Shown here one piece after another: positions 1 to 7,343 of a stretch of 64,000 nucleotides of DNA; the stretch's first letter is position 1, and each line of letters opens with the position of its first letter. This DNA comes from Pyrinomonadaceae bacterium (GTDB lineage: Bacteria > Acidobacteriota > Blastocatellia > Pyrinomonadales > Pyrinomonadaceae). The stretch is taken from the NCBI GenBank assembly GCA_050747225.1, contig JBOGOP010000003.1, forward strand, positions 7,893 to 71,892, given 5' to 3'. The position numbers and the translations under genes are program-made. The notes beneath the pieces are model-generated. The model was not told the DNA's origin. It worked only from the letters and a program-made list of their open reading frames with translations, and ran no database searches.

Positions 1-37
1 TCAAAGTCCGACGTGCTGCCAGTTGCACTATCCCGCA
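1..37 (-). tRNA. tRNA-Gln(UUG), 5' half only (truncated by window edge)
   Basis: Reverse complement reads TGCGGGA-TA-GTGC..GCAC-G-TCGGA-CTTTGA. This gives an acceptor strand, a D arm, and an anticodon stem plus loop with UUG. U1 is typical of tRNA-Gln. Confidence 0.7.
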
Positions 38-42
38 AAAGC

Positions 43-127
43 AAGGATGAAGGCGGAAGGATGAAGGATGAATAGACGGTGGGGAAATTCACGGAGCTTC
101 AGCCCTCATCCTTCAGCCCTCATCCTT
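43..127. repeat. Heptamer-periodic inverted repeat, unit GGATGAA
   Basis: Left arm 43-72 is AAGGATGAAGGCGGAAGGATGAAGGATGAA. Right arm 98-127 is its near reverse complement. Both arms are tandem 7-nt units. Confidence 0.9.
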
Positions 128-132
128 TGATT

Positions 133-228
133 TGGTCGGGGCACTGGGACTCGAACCCAGAACCTTGCGCTTATCTGGCGCTAACACCGCTTATAAGGCG
201 GCTGCTCTGCCGATTGAGCTATGCCCCT
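133..228 (-). tRNA. Atypical 96-nt tRNA-like gene, anticodon-position UAU
   Basis: Normal D arm (GCTC/GAGC), T arm (CTGGG-TTCGAGT-CCCAG), A73 and CCA. The anticodon arm GCCGC-CTTATAA-GCGGT is followed by a 25-nt extra arm that is itself a stem with a 7-nt loop (GCGC-CAGATAA-GCGC). Position 1:72 is an A:G mismatch. Confidence 0.55.
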
Positions 229-234
229 CGATTC

Positions 235-314
235 CAAGTCCAAAGTCACTGGTCCAAAGTCCAAAGTCGATTTTGACCCTGACGTTAGACTTTGGACGTT
301 GGACTTTGGACTGG
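235..314. repeat. Heptamer-periodic inverted repeat, unit CAAAGTC
   Basis: Left arm 235-268 is built from (C)CAAAGTC units. Right arm 281-314 is built from GACTTTG units. Confidence 0.85.
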
Positions 315-319
315 TTTGT

Positions 320-393
320 TGGTCGCGGCGGAAGGAATCGAACCTACGTCGCTCGATTATCGATCGAGGGCTCTGCCATTGAGCTACACCGCG
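320..393 (-). tRNA. tRNA-Ile(GAU) with C33
   Basis: Acceptor CGCGGTG/CGCCGCG, A73, CCA. D arm GCTC/GAGC. Anticodon arm CTCGA-TCGATAA-TCGAG, so the loop has C at position 33. The T stem has one U:U mismatch. Confidence 0.7.
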
Positions 394-419
394 AAGAACA
401 GTTTCGAAACTTTTTGATT

Positions 420-495
420 TGGTTGACCCGACGGGACTTGAACCCGCACATCACGGCTTAAAAGGCCGCTTCTCTGCCACTCGAGTTCCGGGCCA
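420..495 (-). tRNA. tRNA-Lys(UUU)
   Basis: Acceptor TGGCCCG/CGGGTCA, A73, CCA. Anticodon arm GCGGC-CTTTTAA-GCCGT. T arm GCGGG-TTCAAGT-CCCGT. Position 8 is G rather than U. Confidence 0.8.
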
Positions 496-502
496 ACAAT
501 AA

Positions 503-582
503 GTTTCAAGTTCCAAGTTTCAAGTTTCAAGTTTCGCGGTCTCGCTAGAACAACTTGAAAGTTGAAACTTGGAACTTGAAAC
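503..582. repeat. Heptamer-periodic inverted repeat, unit TTTCAAG
   Basis: Left arm 503-534 and right arm 552-582 are almost perfectly complementary. Both are tandem 7-mers. Confidence 0.9.
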
Positions 583-590
583 TATTTATT

Positions 591-667
591 TGGCTGTGGC
601 GGAAGGATTCGAACCTTCGCATGGTCGGATTAACAATCCGATGCCTTACCAACTTGGCTACGCCACA
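591..667 (-). tRNA. tRNA-Asn(GUU)
   Basis: Perfect acceptor TGTGGCG/CGCCACA, G73, CCA. Anticodon arm TCGGA-TTGTTAA-TCCGA. T arm GAAGG-TTCGAAT-CCTTC. Confidence 0.9.
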
Positions 668-674
668 ATAAATT

Positions 675-775
675 TGGACTTAGGGCTTGGGTCTTTGGCC
701 TTTGAGTTTGCCAGCTACGCCGCGCCCTTGCATGTGAAGCACTTCAAAGACCCAAGACCAAAGGCCAAAGACCTT
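675..775. repeat. Heptamer-periodic inverted repeat, units GGTCTTT/CAAAGAC
   Basis: Left arm about 675-706 and right arm about 742-775. The central loop is about 35 nt. Confidence 0.85.
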
Positions 776-783
776 CTCTTAGT

Positions 784-864
784 TGGAGGCGATGAAGGGA
801 GTTGAACCCTTATCGTTCGGTTTACAAGACCGACGCTCTGATTATCCAATTGAGCTACATCGCC
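784..864 (-). tRNA. tRNA-Thr(UGU)
   Basis: Acceptor GGCGATG/CATCGCC, U73, CCA. Anticodon arm TCGGT-CTTGTAA-ACCGA. T arm AAGGG-TTCAACT-CCCTT. The D loop is unusually long at 13 nt. Confidence 0.85.
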
Positions 865-869
865 GGAAT

Positions 870-964
870 CAGTAGGCAGTAGGCAGTGGGCAGTGGGCAG
901 TAGGCAGCGGTTGGAAGTCGAGTGACTCTATCACTGCCTTCTGCCTTCTGCTTCCTGCTTACTG
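870..964. repeat. Heptamer-periodic inverted repeat, unit GCAGTAG
   Basis: Left arm 870-907 is (CAGTAGG/CAGTGGG)n. Right arm 932-964 is an imperfect complement. Confidence 0.85.
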
Positions 965-967
965 GTC

Positions 968-1041
968 TGGTGGAGCTAAGAGGAGTCGAACCTCTACGTC
1001 CTGCTTGCAAAGCAGGCATCATGCCGTTAGATCATAGCCCC
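968..1041 (-). tRNA. tRNA-Ala(UGC)
   Basis: Acceptor GGGGCTA/TAGCTCC with the G3:U70 Ala identity pair, A73, CCA. Anticodon arm CCTGC-TTTGCAA-GCAGG. Confidence 0.9.
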
Positions 1042-5651: not shown

Positions 5652-5656
5652 GGGAT

Positions 5657-5733
5657 TGGCAGGGATGACGGGACTCGAACCCGCAAATCAGCTGATTGAA
5701 GGTCAGCTTGCTTTCCATTTCGCATTCATCCCC
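5657..5733 (-). tRNA. tRNA-Glu(UUC) with C33
   Basis: Acceptor GGGGATG/CATCCCT (G1:U72), G73, CCA. Anticodon arm (A)GCTGA-CCTTCAA-TCAGC(T). Position 8 is A. Confidence 0.75.
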
Positions 5734-5737
5734 TGAA

Positions 5738-5841
5738 AAATTCGGATTTCGGAATGCGGATTTCGGATTTGTTTCGGCGGAGGCATTCCCTTAACCCGGG
5801 GATTTGCAAATCCGCAATCCGAAATCCGCATTCCGAAATTT
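5738..5841. repeat. Heptamer-periodic inverted repeat, unit CGGATTT
   Basis: Left arm 5738-5771 and right arm 5807-5841. Confidence 0.85.
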
Positions 5842-5844
5842 GAC

Positions 5845-5922
5845 TGGTACCGGCGGAGGGATTCGAACCCACACTGTCTAGTTTCTAAAACTAGCGCCTC
5901 CTGCCCGTTGGGCTACGCCGGC
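5845..5922 (-). tRNA. Class-I (78-nt) tRNA with Leu anticodon UAG
   Basis: Acceptor GCCGGCG/CGCCGGT (G1:U72), A73, CCA. Anticodon arm CTAGT-TTTAGAA-ACTAG. The variable-plus-T region ACAGTGTGGGTTCGAATCCCTCCGC is identical to that of 5483-5560. Confidence 0.75.
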
Positions 5923-5928
5923 AAATCT

Positions 5929-6001
5929 AAGGATGAAGGCGGAAGGATTAAGGATGAAACGTTGTAAGATCCATGTCTTCATCCCTCATCCTTCATCCTC
6001 C
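5929..6001. repeat. Heptamer-periodic inverted repeat, unit GGATGAA
   Basis: Left arm 5929-5958 and right arm 5978-6001. Confidence 0.9.
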
Positions 6002-6005
6002 GTTT

Positions 6006-6083
6006 TGGTGGACCTGGCACGACTTGAACGTGCGGCCTCGACCGTCGCAGGGTCGCGCTCTAATTCCACTGAGCTACAGGTCC
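6006..6083 (-). tRNA. tRNA-Arg(GCG)
   Basis: Acceptor GGACCTG/CAGGTCC, A73, CCA. Anticodon arm CGACC-CTGCGAC-GGTCG. T arm GCACG-TTCAAGT-CGTGC. Confidence 0.85.
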
Positions 6084-6089
6084 GACGAA

Positions 6090-6190
6090 GAATTTCGGAT
6101 TTCGGAATGCGGATTTCGGATTGGCCGCTACACAATCTTGACGGATTCATTGACCAATCTGCATTCCGCAATCAGCAATCAGCAATCAAT
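6090..6190. repeat. Heptamer-periodic inverted repeat, CGGATTT left arm with a diverged right arm (AATCAGC units)
   Basis: Left arm 6090-6122 and right arm 6156-6190. The arms are only partly complementary. Confidence 0.7.
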
Positions 6191-6277
6191 TGGCGGAGGG
6201 TGCGAGACTCGAACTCGCAAGGGACTTGCGCCCGTCGGTTTTCGGGACCGGTGCCATGCCAATTTGACGAACCCTCC
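6191..6277 (-). tRNA. tRNA-Ser(CGA), class II, with C33
   Basis: Acceptor GGAGGGT/ACCCTCC, G73, CCA. Anticodon loop CCCGAAA. Long variable arm GGG-CGCAAGT-CCC. T arm GCGAG-TTCGAGT-CTCGC. Confidence 0.85.
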
Positions 6278-6309
6278 AGATATTCTTTGATCTTATTCCG
6301 GTGCTCTTT

Positions 6310-6338
6310 CATCCTTCCGCCTTCAACCTTCATCCTTT
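6310..6338. repeat. Solo heptamer arm (TTCATCC family)
   Basis: Sequence is TCATCCTTCCGCCTTCAACCTTCATCCTT. There is no local complementary arm. Confidence 0.75.
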
Positions 6339-6346
6339 CTTGAACT

Positions 6347-6422
6347 TGGCAGGGACGCTCGGATTTGAACCGAGAATCTCGATTTTGGAGACCGATGGTT
6401 TTGCCAGTTAGCCTACATCCCT
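6347..6422 (-). tRNA. tRNA-Trp(CCA)
   Basis: A1:U72 and G73 (Trp-like), CCA. Anticodon arm TCGGT-CTCCAAA-ATCGA. T arm CTCGG-TTCAAAT-CCGAG. Confidence 0.88.
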
Positions 6423-6431
6423 AAGAAAATC

Positions 6432-6519
6432 TGGTGCACGCGGTAGGACTCGCACCTACGAAGTTCACGAGGAACGCCTGATTTACAGTCAGGTGCCTTT
6501 GCTGCTCAGCCACGCGTGC
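6432..6519 (-). tRNA. tRNA-Tyr(GUA), class II, T-loop UGCGAGU (G55)
   Basis: Acceptor GCACGCG/CGCGTGC, A73, CCA. Anticodon arm CCTGA-CTGTAAA-TCAGG with a long variable arm. The T arm is GTAGG-TGCGAGT-CCTAC, so position 55 is G rather than U. Confidence 0.85.
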
Positions 6520-6525
6520 GGAAAA

Positions 6526-6650
6526 AATTTCGAATTTCGAATTGCGGATTTCGAAACTTGAAGGTACGAAGAATTCTTTCTGACGACATGGGACTTGCCT
6601 CCGAACTTTGTCTTGGTAAATTTCGAAATCCGCAATTCGCATTTCGAAAT
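6526..6650. repeat. Heptamer-periodic inverted repeat, units TTTCGAA/CGGATTT
   Basis: Left arm 6526-6557 and right arm 6618-6650. It lies upstream (minus sense) of the first array gene, tRNA-Tyr. Confidence 0.85.
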
Positions 6651-7343
6651 CTTCCTGTTATGCTAAAAACAGATGAAGGCAGAGAGAAACGTACCGCGAA
6701 CATAATTCGAGGCACACTTCTCCTGAGGATGGCGACGCCCGACACTCTCGCAAAGCAACGGCGTCGTCATCCGGAAGGCTCCCTGCCTTCATCCAAAGAC
6801 TCCATGCGAGTTTCGCCTGGAGTTTTTTCACAAATAGGTACTTCGATTGTCAAAAAACAAAAAGAGCGGGCTTTAAGCCTCCCAGGGAAGCTGCCCGCTC
6901 CTAACAATTCTCGCGATTTTTCTTTGAGATTTGGGAGCGGGAGTCCGCTCCCGCGAATTAATGCCTGATGTAACGGCTATCTATGGATGCTTGTCCGAGT
7001 CTGCCGTTAAATAAATTGACGGCTGACCCTGGATTGGCATTCAGACACACGCCACGCATGGCCGCCGTGGGCTGCCGTTTGGTGGTGTGTTCTTTATTTG
7101 TCCAGCTCGTCAACATTGGAATGGTTTCCTTCTCTCTGCGCGATTCACATGATCGCGCGGCCATCTTGTATAAAGTAGGAATAACGATCCTGTCAAGGAC
7201 TTTCTGAAAAAATAACTTTCGCATAGCCCTCTTTTGCTTCGATAACTATAGCGACGACTTGAGTTGCCTTGAGCTTAAGTAAATTAGATCAAGCCGTCAG
7301 TTAGGAAGGCCTGGTCGGAAGGTACGTTCAGCTCTGCGAAGGG

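Follow-up and report, generated by a model that had tools for sequence, protein, structure and literature searches.

An accessory tRNA array interleaved with rtcB and HNH nuclease genes behind an attenuator-like leader in Pyrinomonadaceae

The DNA analyzed here, a 64-kb stretch of a Pyrinomonadaceae genome (contig JBOGOP010000003.1; hereafter, the window), begins with an array of transfer RNA (tRNA) genes about 6.5 kb long, on a single strand and with operon-like spacing, within which lie genes for an RtcB RNA ligase and an HNH nuclease. The locus is best classed as a long accessory tRNA array, known as an L-array or tRNA array unit, and not as a new kind of system. What is new is the host phylum and the family-wide chromosomal locus in which tRNA genes are interleaved between the genes of an operon, together with a leader open reading frame (ORF) and terminator shared with array-less rtcB loci, a link to Rsr and YrlA in relatives, and several non-canonical tRNAs. 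The reading we favor, at a probability of roughly 60%, is that a chromosomal accessory array grew inside a Pyrinomonadaceae rtcB–HNH operon and is controlled by an attenuator for use when translation is in trouble. Loci of relatives and viruses with which the window was compared carry the labels L001–L210.

Under this reading, transcription would start from one conserved promoter (approximately 7196–7168) and pass a short leader ORF, a hairpin at its stop codon, a terminator that an alternative pairing can pre-empt, and a structured leader RNA. It would then run through tRNA-Tyr to tRNA-Lys(CUU), rtcB, tRNA-Pro to tRNA-Cys, the HNH gene, and tRNA-Phe to tRNA-Gln, and in some relatives onward into genes for Rsr (Ro60) and the YrlA Y RNA. 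The behavior of the ribosome on the leader ORF would set the level of read-through; the products, a near-minimal set of replacement decoders and a ligase, would be made jointly and only under translation trouble. The ligase would reseal tRNAs that had been cut to 2′,3′-cyclic-phosphate and 5′-OH ends. Co-transcription, tRNA charging, and the repair function are the steps of this scheme that we infer.

Conservation of the locus and its control region

RtcB relatives place the window in the Pyrinomonadaceae (Acidobacteriota, Blastocatellia), and in relatives with 64–95% RtcB identity rtcB is again nested in, or adjacent to, tRNA genes arrayed on its own strand. Largely the same gene order is kept in the clade to which the window belongs (L003, L004, L006, L009): a first block running Tyr, Trp, Ser ... 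His, Asp, Lys(CUU), followed by rtcB, then Pro, Arg, Gly, Cys, the HNH gene, and Phe, Val, Met, Ala, Thr, Asn, Lys, Ile, Ile(UAU), and Gln. ORF clustering recovered RtcB and the window's HNH family together in 28 of 43 loci. Array size at the rtcB–HNH locus ranges from 0 to 34 tRNAs (zero in L014 and L017, one in L024), and rtcB and HNH stand together under the same leader in the tRNA-less L011, L014, and L017; L010 has the leader and rtcB, with no HNH gene within the 10.5 kb covered. A chromosomal frame is common to many loci: one flank carries tRNA-Pro(GGG) with a MerR regulator gene and a ThiL-like gene, and the other carries genes for a methyltransferase, a P-loop protein, and cysteinyl-tRNA synthetase (CysRS). 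The left flank of the array varies between clades. The persistence of the same frame at 64–79% RtcB identity fits long vertical inheritance. The original prediction, made from the window alone, had called for a search of related genomes for rtcB or HNH genes nested between tRNA genes; this placement proved to be conserved across the Pyrinomonadaceae, in arrays of 0–34 tRNAs.

The approximately 550 nt upstream of the first tRNA (about 7200–6660) are 75–83% identical among L001–L009, and part of this region directly precedes rtcB in the array-less L010, L011, and L031. Its features in the window, preceded by the terminator that bounds it upstream, are as follows, all on the minus strand:

7353–7385 (−): intrinsic terminator of the upstream glyoxalase gene, the unit's upstream boundary (terminator scan)
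7168–7196 (−): promoter-like TTGACA-17-TATACA, conserved in all relatives (alignment)
6958–7116 (−): leader ORF, 52 codons, with Shine-Dalgarno sequence; stop codon 3 nt before H1 (intact in 26 loci)
6937–6954 (−): hairpin H1 (GCGGGAG-CGGA-CTCCCGC), segments 1 and 2 (fold, alignment)
6852–6901 (−): long terminator hairpin (GGAGCGGGC...GCCCGCTC) and T-tract, segments 3 and 4 (fold, alignment)
6661–6851 (−): structured leader RNA ("leader 2"), about 190 nt (RNAalifold, 9 loci)

Promoter, leader ORF, hairpin, and terminator stand before the array in array-bearing loci and straight before rtcB in the array-less L010, L011, L017, and L031; a deeper clade has the identical design with a sequence that differs outside the core. 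Across 26 loci, a Shine-Dalgarno sequence is followed by an ORF of 20–70 codons whose stop codon always falls 3–5 nt before H1. The encoded peptides are variable, with in-frame indels and all three stop codons in use. A terminator follows H1 in 25 of these 26 loci by the pattern used, and gene calling in another assembly likewise recognized the window's 52-codon ORF. Segment 2 (CCCGCTCC) can pair either with segment 1 (−14 kcal/mol) or with terminator segment 3 (−18 kcal/mol), and L013 carries concordant, matching substitutions in all four segments, as mutually exclusive pairings predict. A ribosome at the leader stop codon would cover segment 1 and thereby free segment 2. With its promoter, Shine-Dalgarno sequence and short ORF, exclusive helices, and terminator, the region has the architecture of a leader-peptide, ribosome-dependent transcription attenuator. 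It looks like a layout in which read-through is predicted to depend on translation; both the direction and the trigger of the response are what we infer from it.

Beyond the terminator, leader 2 is closed by a 16-bp stem (6793–6779 with 6686–6671), followed by U6, that encloses a three-way junction. Its alignment over 9 loci (RNAalifold) includes some compensatory pairs (CGC/GCG to UCU/AGA), and insertions are confined to loops. An Rfam E-value scan matched no known RNA family to the upstream region, leader 2 included. A second small ORF considered within leader 2 (VCLELCSRY...) was rejected, as L001 carries an insertion there of about 40 nt that is not a multiple of three, and L008 is similar.

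The spacing of the genes bears on whether they form one unit. In L003, L007, and L009, the 3′ end of tRNA-Lys(CUU) lies about 30 nt from the start of rtcB, leaving no room for a separate rtcB promoter. A simple terminator scan found a strong terminator at 7385–7353, after the glyoxalase gene, and no coding-strand site inside the array. A candidate internal promoter for rtcB in the window (TTTACA-16-TATTCT, 4743–4716) was rejected because its −35 element is unconserved and the corresponding gap in relatives is so short. The conserved control region supports a single, conditionally expressed operon, and on sequence grounds array, rtcB, and HNH probably form one linked, co-transcribed module. The original prediction had proposed such a module for replacing and resealing damaged tRNAs; its first half is made probable by the conserved rtcB–HNH linkage, the short gap, and the leader shared with array-less rtcB, and the second half is a function that the module may serve.

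Genes for a TROVE-vWA protein (Rsr/Ro60) occur in L006, L009, L012, L013, L021, L025, L028, and L039, at one of two positions: just past the array, or separating the tRNA blocks from rtcB. Six of the eight loci also encode, by Rfam, a YrlA-type Y RNA in the Rsr stretch, at gathering score in L012, L013, L021, and L039 and just below it in L009 (67.6 bits) and L006 (59.9 bits). Given where relatives have them, beyond the last array gene or between tRNA blocks and rtcB, Rsr and YrlA may lie beyond the window's left edge. Small conserved proteins without a Pfam or NCBIfam match were also observed in or beside the arrays of relatives, and none in the window. These include families F3 (L001 4975–5352 and 10 other loci), F23 (L011 2167–2955), and F33 (L006 10646–11032); one small-protein family, of about 114 amino acids, lies between His/Asp and Lys.

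Array genes and their accessory status

The genes of the array, in window coordinates, are listed below; transcription would run from the last line to the first.

1–37 (−): tRNA-Gln(UUG), 5′ half, cut at the window edge (sequence read; closes the array in L004, L006, L009, and L210)
133–228 (−): five-arm tRNA(UAU), 96 nt (ARAGORN; Rfam 56 bits; fold)
320–393 (−): tRNA-Ile(GAU) (ARAGORN, Rfam)
420–495 (−): tRNA-Lys(UUU), divergent, Rfam 34 bits (ARAGORN, Rfam)
591–667 (−): tRNA-Asn(GUU) (ARAGORN, Rfam)
784–864 (−): tRNA-Thr(UGU), D-loop enlarged (ARAGORN, Rfam)
968–1041 (−): tRNA-Ala(UGC), G3:U70 (ARAGORN)
1155–1232 (−): tRNA(CAU), non-initiator, with U1-G72 pair and anticodon stem without G29–G31 run (ARAGORN)
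1257–1341 (−): UCU tRNA-like gene, non-canonical, 8/4, CCA (conservation in relatives; fold)
1447–1522 (−): tRNA-Val(UAC) (ARAGORN, Rfam)
1622–1696 (−): tRNA-Phe(GAA) (ARAGORN, Rfam)
1816–2394 (−): HNH nuclease, 192 amino acids (Pfam, NCBIfam, BLASTP to all8564)
2707–2782 (−): tRNA-Cys(GCA), U73 (ARAGORN)
2869–2944 (−): tRNA-Gly(UCC), divergent, Rfam 33 bits (ARAGORN, Rfam)
3080–3155 (−): tRNA-Arg(UCG) (ARAGORN, Rfam)
3329–3402 (−): tRNA-Pro(UGG), C1:G72, below gathering score in Rfam (ARAGORN)
3519–4697 (−): RtcB RNA ligase, 392 amino acids, intein-free (Pfam, motif alignment, phrog_1075)
4823–4900 (−): tRNA-Lys(CUU), in relatives the tRNA directly upstream of rtcB (ARAGORN)
5005–5079 (−): tRNA-Asp(GUC) (ARAGORN)
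5233–5307 (−): tRNA-His(GUG), encoded G−1 at 5308 (ARAGORN, sequence read)
5391–5468 (−): tRNA-Leu(UAA), 78 nt, without long variable arm, A73 (ARAGORN)
5483–5560 (−): tRNA-Leu(CAA), 78 nt, without long variable arm, A73 (ARAGORN)
5657–5733 (−): tRNA-Glu(UUC) (ARAGORN)
5845–5922 (−): tRNA-Leu(UAG), 78 nt, without long variable arm, A73 (ARAGORN)
6006–6083 (−): tRNA-Arg(GCG) (ARAGORN)
6191–6277 (−): tRNA-Ser(CGA), the array's sole Ser tRNA (ARAGORN)
6347–6422 (−): tRNA-Trp(CCA) (ARAGORN)
6432–6519 (−): tRNA-Tyr(GUA), the array's first gene (ARAGORN)

ARAGORN, run on the whole 64 kb, called 24 tRNA genes within 133–6519, all on the minus strand, and none in the remaining 57 kb; 23 of the 24 reach the gathering score of the Rfam tRNA model, with Pro(UGG) below it. 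Two further genes, the truncated tRNA-Gln(UUG) and the 85-nt UCU tRNA-like element, complete the 26 minus-strand genes that the original prediction had counted. An encoded CCA end, earlier claimed for every complete gene, terminates all 24 called genes and the UCU element. The spacers between tRNA genes measure 9–173 nt, which keeps the lower end of the range first given and moves its upper end from 170 nt. Canonical tRNAs flanking the array in this family, such as Pro(GGG) and Ser(UGA), encode CCA as well, so the CCA end is not diagnostic of array genes; on the same ground, with other canonical tRNAs of the family, encoded CCA was discarded as evidence that the genes are foreign.

All 20 amino acids are covered, in agreement with the claim that every specificity is present, but codon coverage is incomplete. 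The single CAU tRNA has no initiator features, and Ser(CGA) is the sole Ser tRNA, such that Ser isoacceptors for AGY and most UCN codons are missing from the window array. Anticodons are mostly U34 and include the UAU tRNA for AUA. The identity elements described at the outset could be read again in Ala (G3:U70), His (G−1, with C73), Cys (U73), Pro (C1:G72), and Asn (U1:A72); the A72 also ascribed to Gln falls in the 3′ half of that gene, outside the window. Divergent members score 33–47 bits in Rfam (Gly, Lys, Ser, Leu, Glu). RtcB and HNH are the only credible ORFs inside the array, as had been stated.

Between loci with 70–80% RtcB identity, array tRNAs that share an anticodon have a median identity of 71%, as compared with 88% for the canonical neighbor Pro(GGG); at 80–90% RtcB identity, the values are 89% and 95%. 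By these identities, the array evolves about twice as fast as the neighboring canonical tRNA. L210, a 1.75-Mb contig with an HNH protein 89% identical to the window's, has an array that ends at Gln and, past it on the opposite strand, canonical Cys(GCA) and Gly(GCC) genes that are 65–66% identical to its own array copies. Additionally, L004 has a second Ser(UGA) outside its array. Judged from sequence, the set is accessory: it has no initiator, it has gaps for Ser, its size varies, it evolves fast, and paralogs stand beside it in L210. Because it shrinks to zero in syntenic relatives, the array is not the sole tRNA set. The original prediction had named two findings that would reduce the locus to a housekeeping operon, sole genomic copies and a placement not conserved in relatives. 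Neither held, as the placement is conserved and the internal gaps and relatives mark the set as accessory.

The RtcB ORF matches Pfam PF01139 over its full length (E = 3e-121), and its motifs DIGCG, GGGNHF, HSGSR, HHN, and SHGAGR have counterparts at aligned positions in P. horikoshii RtcB (PDB 1uc2/4dwq). The metal-binding Cys/His residues and the His that accepts guanosine monophosphate (GMP) are matched, bearing out the claim that the catalytic blocks are intact. The protein scores 450 bits against the phage family phrog_1075, as compared with 171 bits against the bacterial equivalog. Its closest phage homolog is 57% identical and its closest plasmid homolog 61% (Nostoc UHCC 0926), with no tRNAs adjoining the latter. 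An exact match of the whole protein lies on a shorter contig of another assembly, likewise broken within the array. Neither rtcA nor rtcR was among the ORFs of 1–6600 or the tested flank ORFs to 13 kb, the remainder of the window being unscreened. RtcB ORFs of 714–755 amino acids were observed in L027–L030 and L036 (some Pyrinomonadaceae, Microcoleus), with an apparent intein after about residue 78 and the "intein-containing RtcB family" as the top NCBIfam model; the window's RtcB is intein-free. RtcB joins a 3′-phosphate or 2′,3′-cyclic phosphate to a 5′-OH, and it is the tRNA-splicing ligase in archaea and animals.

The HNH protein (HNH_5 in Pfam, E = 2e-14) consists of an N-terminal domain of about 85 amino acids followed by an IscB/Cas9-like HNH domain. 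It is 34% identical to Anabaena all8564 (WP_010999558) over 146 amino acids spanning both domains (BLASTP, E = 1e-23), and its family is also nested in the arrays of Mycolicibacterium plasmid pCBMA213_1, where 29 tRNAs surround the HNH gene, and of the phages S-CBWM1 and Tunturiibacter phage Tunturi_5. An exact record look-up with three start variants returned no match. PADLOC defense models gave generic HNH matches only and left RtcB unmatched. HNH nucleases produce 5′-phosphate and 3′-OH ends, which RtcB cannot join. The HNH protein constantly accompanies such arrays, both in several bacterial phyla and in phages, and the role usually suggested for it is array spread or maintenance.

Non-canonical tRNAs

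The tRNA(UAU) that precedes Gln folds with a canonical 7/5 acceptor and T stem, A73, and CCA, and carries at the variable position an extra 4-bp stem with the loop CAGAUAA. This stem covaries among 8 relatives, in which the loop is constant as CAGAUNA; members include L004 14113–14205, L006 6743–6835, L012 11353–11440, L013 6955–7046, and L027 8258–8349. An exact-pattern scan found the five-arm form in at least 120 IMG/VR contigs (loci L087–L206). Among the viral matches listed, 97 are called Ile(UAU) by ARAGORN, with lengths of 88–99 nt; at least 4 of 5 loop-closing positions pair in 101, with 42 distinct stems, and 88 have the loop CAGAUUA. Controls in which the pairing partner was slid by 1 or 2 positions scored far lower. 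The form is also present, unannotated, in the cultured Synechococcus phage S-SRM01 (32944–33020), and a search of the literature library available found no description of a long-arm tRNA-Ile(UAU). The extra-arm loop resembles the anticodon loop of tRNA-Ile(GAU) (CAGAUUA as against CUGAUAA), which suggests, as a hypothesis only, that it might help isoleucyl-tRNA synthetase (IleRS) accept the UAU tRNA.

The 85-nt UCU element (1341–1257), missed by both ARAGORN and Rfam, is conserved nearly base for base at the same position in L003, L004, L006, and L009; in L005, whose extracted gap ends early, its 5′ part can be recognized too. Folds of the four orthologs share an 8-bp acceptor stem (GGCCCGCG/CGCGGGCU) and a 4-bp T stem (GAGG/CCUC), which together give the 12-bp acceptor branch of an 8/4 allo-tRNA; over the central region, where a selenocysteine (Sec)-like D stem and long variable arm would lie, the four folds disagree. 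Allo-tRNAs and irregular tRNA polycistrons are known from Acidobacteria (Mukai et al., 2017; PMC5389517), and allo-tRNA(UAU) variants assayed in E. coli gave no decoding (PMC5389517). The UCU element shares their defining 8-bp acceptor and 4-bp T stem; UAU is the most frequent anticodon of this group, five-stem forms are mentioned among its members, and their hosts include Acidobacteria (PMC5389517). However, the UAU tRNA here is 7/5 with A73, neither 8/4 nor 9/3, and it belongs to a full-length array, whereas the published ones lie beside toxin–antitoxin genes (PMC5389517).

All three Leu tRNAs of the array are without a long variable arm, which the canonical Leu(GAG) in L037 (an "uncultured bacterium" metagenome-assembled genome) has. 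Two further elements were observed in relatives and are absent from the window. One is a second tRNA-like gene missed by ARAGORN, in the Val–Met gap just upstream of the UCU element (L003, region 7810–7895; also L004, L005, L006, and L009), with a 9-bp acceptor stem (CGGGGCGUG/CACGCCCCG), A73, and CCA. The other is a GOLLD RNA (RF02032, 167–178 bits) with a tRNA-like insert, located within the arrays of L009 (1890–2365) and L210 (6618–7088).

Related systems and competing explanations

The roles debated for long accessory tRNA arrays are translational-stress backup, anti-defense cargo, and toxin sponges. The acidobacterial version physically ties such an array to an RNA-repair operon, with rtcB here and Rsr and Y RNA in relatives. 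If the favored reading is true, a translation-sensing leader would supply a concrete, testable logic for when spare tRNAs are called on. Because Pyrinomonadaceae are abundant in soils, the system is a common one in the environment. Standard annotation overlooks some of the tRNA types found in the array, among which the five-arm tRNA(UAU) bears on AUA decoding and on substrate recognition by IleRS. If the array is merely a relic, its value lies in a wider known host range for such arrays.

L-arrays were defined as long, supernumerary, horizontally spread tRNA operons in a survey that scored Acidobacteria as lacking them (Santamaria-Gomez et al., 2021; PMC8421152), and no paper on tRNA arrays in Blastocatellia turned up in the literature library available for searching. 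The original prediction knew of no system with rtcB nested in a tRNA array, but this had already been reported, together with an HNH gene, for cyanobacteria: an HNH gene (all8564 in Anabaena) is conserved beside the arrays, and in some species these operons contain, or are linked to, rtcB and dpsA (PMC8421152). Mycobacterial HNH-bearing units (PMC5966550, PMC12803027) and jumbo phages with RtcB and tRNAs (PMC7824862) further counter that claim of novelty. Translation inhibitors induce the Anabaena array together with all8564 and rtcB, and in vivo charging was reported for 23 of its 26 tRNAs (PMC8421152). RtcB and spare tRNAs have been proposed to jointly maintain the tRNA pool, and a sponge role has been proposed for the Anabaena array, with cleavage seen for operon tRNAs only (PMC8421152). 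The function originally suggested for the window locus matches this published hypothesis and would gain from the conserved linkage and shared leader described above.

The trn operon on plasmid delta of Anabaena sp. PCC 7120, a supernumerary set, resembles the window array in its long same-strand run of tRNA genes (24–26 in such arrays) with about one decoder per amino acid, in the homologous HNH gene attached, and in its Leu tRNAs of 75–78 nt without a long arm. Unlike that operon, the locus described here is chromosomal and syntenic across a family, its tRNA genes lie between those of the rtcB–HNH operon in a different order, and it appears to be controlled through a leader ORF followed by a terminator, not through direct repeats to which TrcR binds (PMC10272220). 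Mycobacterial units (Morgado & Vicente, 2018; Yano et al., 2026; PMC5966550, PMC12803027) likewise hold 26–30 tRNAs for 19–20 amino acids, with anticodons redundant to the chromosomal set but different sequences, and their most conserved protein gene is the one embedded HNH gene, which belongs to the same family. However, no RtcB is reported for them, their Leu tRNAs are of the normal long type, and they occur on plasmids, phages, and chromosomes and are discussed as anti-defense cargo.

Similar sets are carried by phages. The acidobacterial jumbo phage Tunturi_5 has a tRNA cluster, the same HNH family (35% identity), RtcB within 4 kb, and a CCA-adding enzyme, in a phage genome context and with no leader-ORF element; its RtcB is just 30% identical to the window's and thus of a different lineage. 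Other jumbo phages combine tRNA sets with RtcB and, in some, a Ro/TROVE protein (Iyer et al., 2021; PMC7824862). The RtcB–Rsr–YrlA linkage seen here only in relatives (L006, L009, L012, L013, L021, L039) recalls the Salmonella rsr-yrlBA-rtcBA operon, which responds to damaged tRNAs (Chen et al., 2014, PMC4201824; Hughes et al., 2020, PMC7790460) and whose YrlA-type Y RNA has a tRNA-like domain (PMC4201824, PMC7790460). Unlike that operon, which has no tRNA array, no RtcA or RtcR/sigma-54 control was seen for the locus in the ORFs tested, and Rsr and YrlA are not inside the window.

Several findings weigh against the reading we favor. The accessory status of the window's own array is read from its internal gaps and from relatives. 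Nearly every array spacer holds a hairpin of 25–40 bp that could hinder read-through, and the terminator of the control region is always favored in equilibrium folding. Several array tRNAs are divergent or non-canonical and may be of no service in translation. The window has no Rsr by tblastn and no YrlA by Rfam, and both are absent from L210. Additionally, a conserved TTGACA just past the terminator T-tract could be a second promoter, which would make the leader ORF a separate small gene; this is unlikely, as a good −10 element is missing downstream of the motif, 85 nt are inserted at this point in L005, and the motif is absent from L017.

A more far-reaching version of the same idea, which we entertain only tentatively, would have a stalling-sensing attenuator switch on a self-triggering emergency kit of minimal decoders and RtcB, joined in relatives by Rsr and Y RNA. 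The tRNAs, including the arm-less Leu tRNAs and the 8/4 allo-type tRNA, would be independent of host modification and of the usual identity rules. The five-arm tRNA(UAU) would represent a widespread, as yet unannotated class of tRNAs in phages and arrays with a new kind of identity element, decoding AUA without lysidine and mimicking, with its extra arm, the Ile(GAU) loop for IleRS. A different explanation would treat the locus as resident or domesticated cargo of a phage or mobile element, in the form of a chromosomal remnant or an unrecognized element. It would be a counter-defense kit serving that element, with tRNAs that escape host anticodon nucleases and a ligase that reseals those that are cut. 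The top score of RtcB against phrog_1075, the HNH family within the arrays of S-CBWM1 and Tunturi_5 (in the latter with RtcB and the CCA-adding enzyme), the occurrence of the five-arm tRNA(UAU) in IMG/VR contigs (at least 120), the nesting of the phage-typical GOLLD RNA within the L009 and L210 arrays, and the clade-dependent left flank are all consistent with such an origin. We nonetheless judge it unlikely. Signs of a prophage were judged on the ORFs next to the array and on GC content; the left array boundary is outside the window. No integrase, recombinase, transposase, phage structural gene, or transfer gene was found among the tested flank ORFs (up to 13 kb), and GC is flat across the boundary, at 0.51–0.55. 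The same chromosomal frame, from tRNA-Pro(GGG), MerR, and the ThiL-like gene to CysRS, recurs in many genomes at 64–79% RtcB identity, and the leader element is specific to the family and would also control rtcB in loci without an array. Array content of 0–34 genes among syntenic loci and a left flank that differs by clade may reflect horizontal spread; yet the rtcB–HNH locus looks vertical within the family.

It is also conceivable, although improbable, that the array RNAs act mainly outside decoding, as toxin decoys, as substrates or regulators of RtcB and Rsr, or as sources of regulatory fragments. The many divergent members (33–47 bits), the 8/4 UCU element, the five-arm UAU tRNA, and the arm-less Leu tRNAs would suit such roles, as would the failure of allo-tRNA(UAU) variants to decode in E. 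coli (PMC5389517), the sponge proposal for Anabaena (PMC8421152), and the tRNA-mimicking YrlA RNA in the same operon in relatives. However, identity elements and CCA are retained for 20 amino acids, the anticodons resemble a designed minimal decoder set, and most Anabaena array tRNAs, 23 of 26, are aminoacylated in vivo (PMC8421152). Quite improbable in our view is a maturation role, in which RtcB and HNH would cut and rejoin the array's precursor or its unusual five-arm and 8/4 tRNAs rather than repair damage. The splicing role of RtcB in archaea and animals invites this idea, as do the embedding of both enzymes among unusual tRNA genes and the family-wide maintenance of their pairing, but the two genes persist under the same leader in the tRNA-less L011, L014, and L017, the ends left by HNH nucleases are unsuited to joining by RtcB, and no intron-like or permuted tRNA was seen. 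Very unlikely indeed is an ordinary housekeeping tRNA operon with rtcB and HNH as fortuitous neighbors. The locus is chromosomal and conserved in the family, housekeeping tRNAs of the family encode CCA too, and the window's other 57 kb are tRNA-free; against this stand the absent initiator, the single CAU tRNA, Ser present only as CGA, the 0–34 array tRNAs of syntenic relatives and their fast evolution, the arm-less Leu tRNAs as opposed to the long-armed canonical Leu(GAG) in L037, and the canonical paralogs beside the array in L210.

The tested flank ORFs encode a glyoxalase, a PA-IL-like protein, an HI0933-like flavoprotein, and a Schlafen/AlbA_2 protein of 450 amino acids. The gene for the last (11704–13056, minus strand) is some 5 kb upstream of the array; PADLOC gave no hit for it, and nothing was found that connects it with the array. 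Some Schlafen-family proteins are tRNA nucleases.

Imperfect hairpins of 25–40 bp occur throughout the intergenic gaps of the window, their arms being tandem repeats of period 7 with a heptamer that differs from site to site (GCAGTAG, AGTAGTC, GTAAATC, GGATGAA, AATCCGA ...). They were rejected as a processing signal of the array, since the same kind fills gaps window-wide and L009 has the same array with spacers of 7–15 nt that are hairpin-free. Examples lie at 10270–10387, 11615–11705, 14929–15100, 16618–16753, 24625–24739, 27367–27471, 32867–32961, 61496–61573, and 62363–62466. They occupy tandem, convergent, and divergent gaps and are reminiscent of the STRR heptamer repeats of cyanobacteria.

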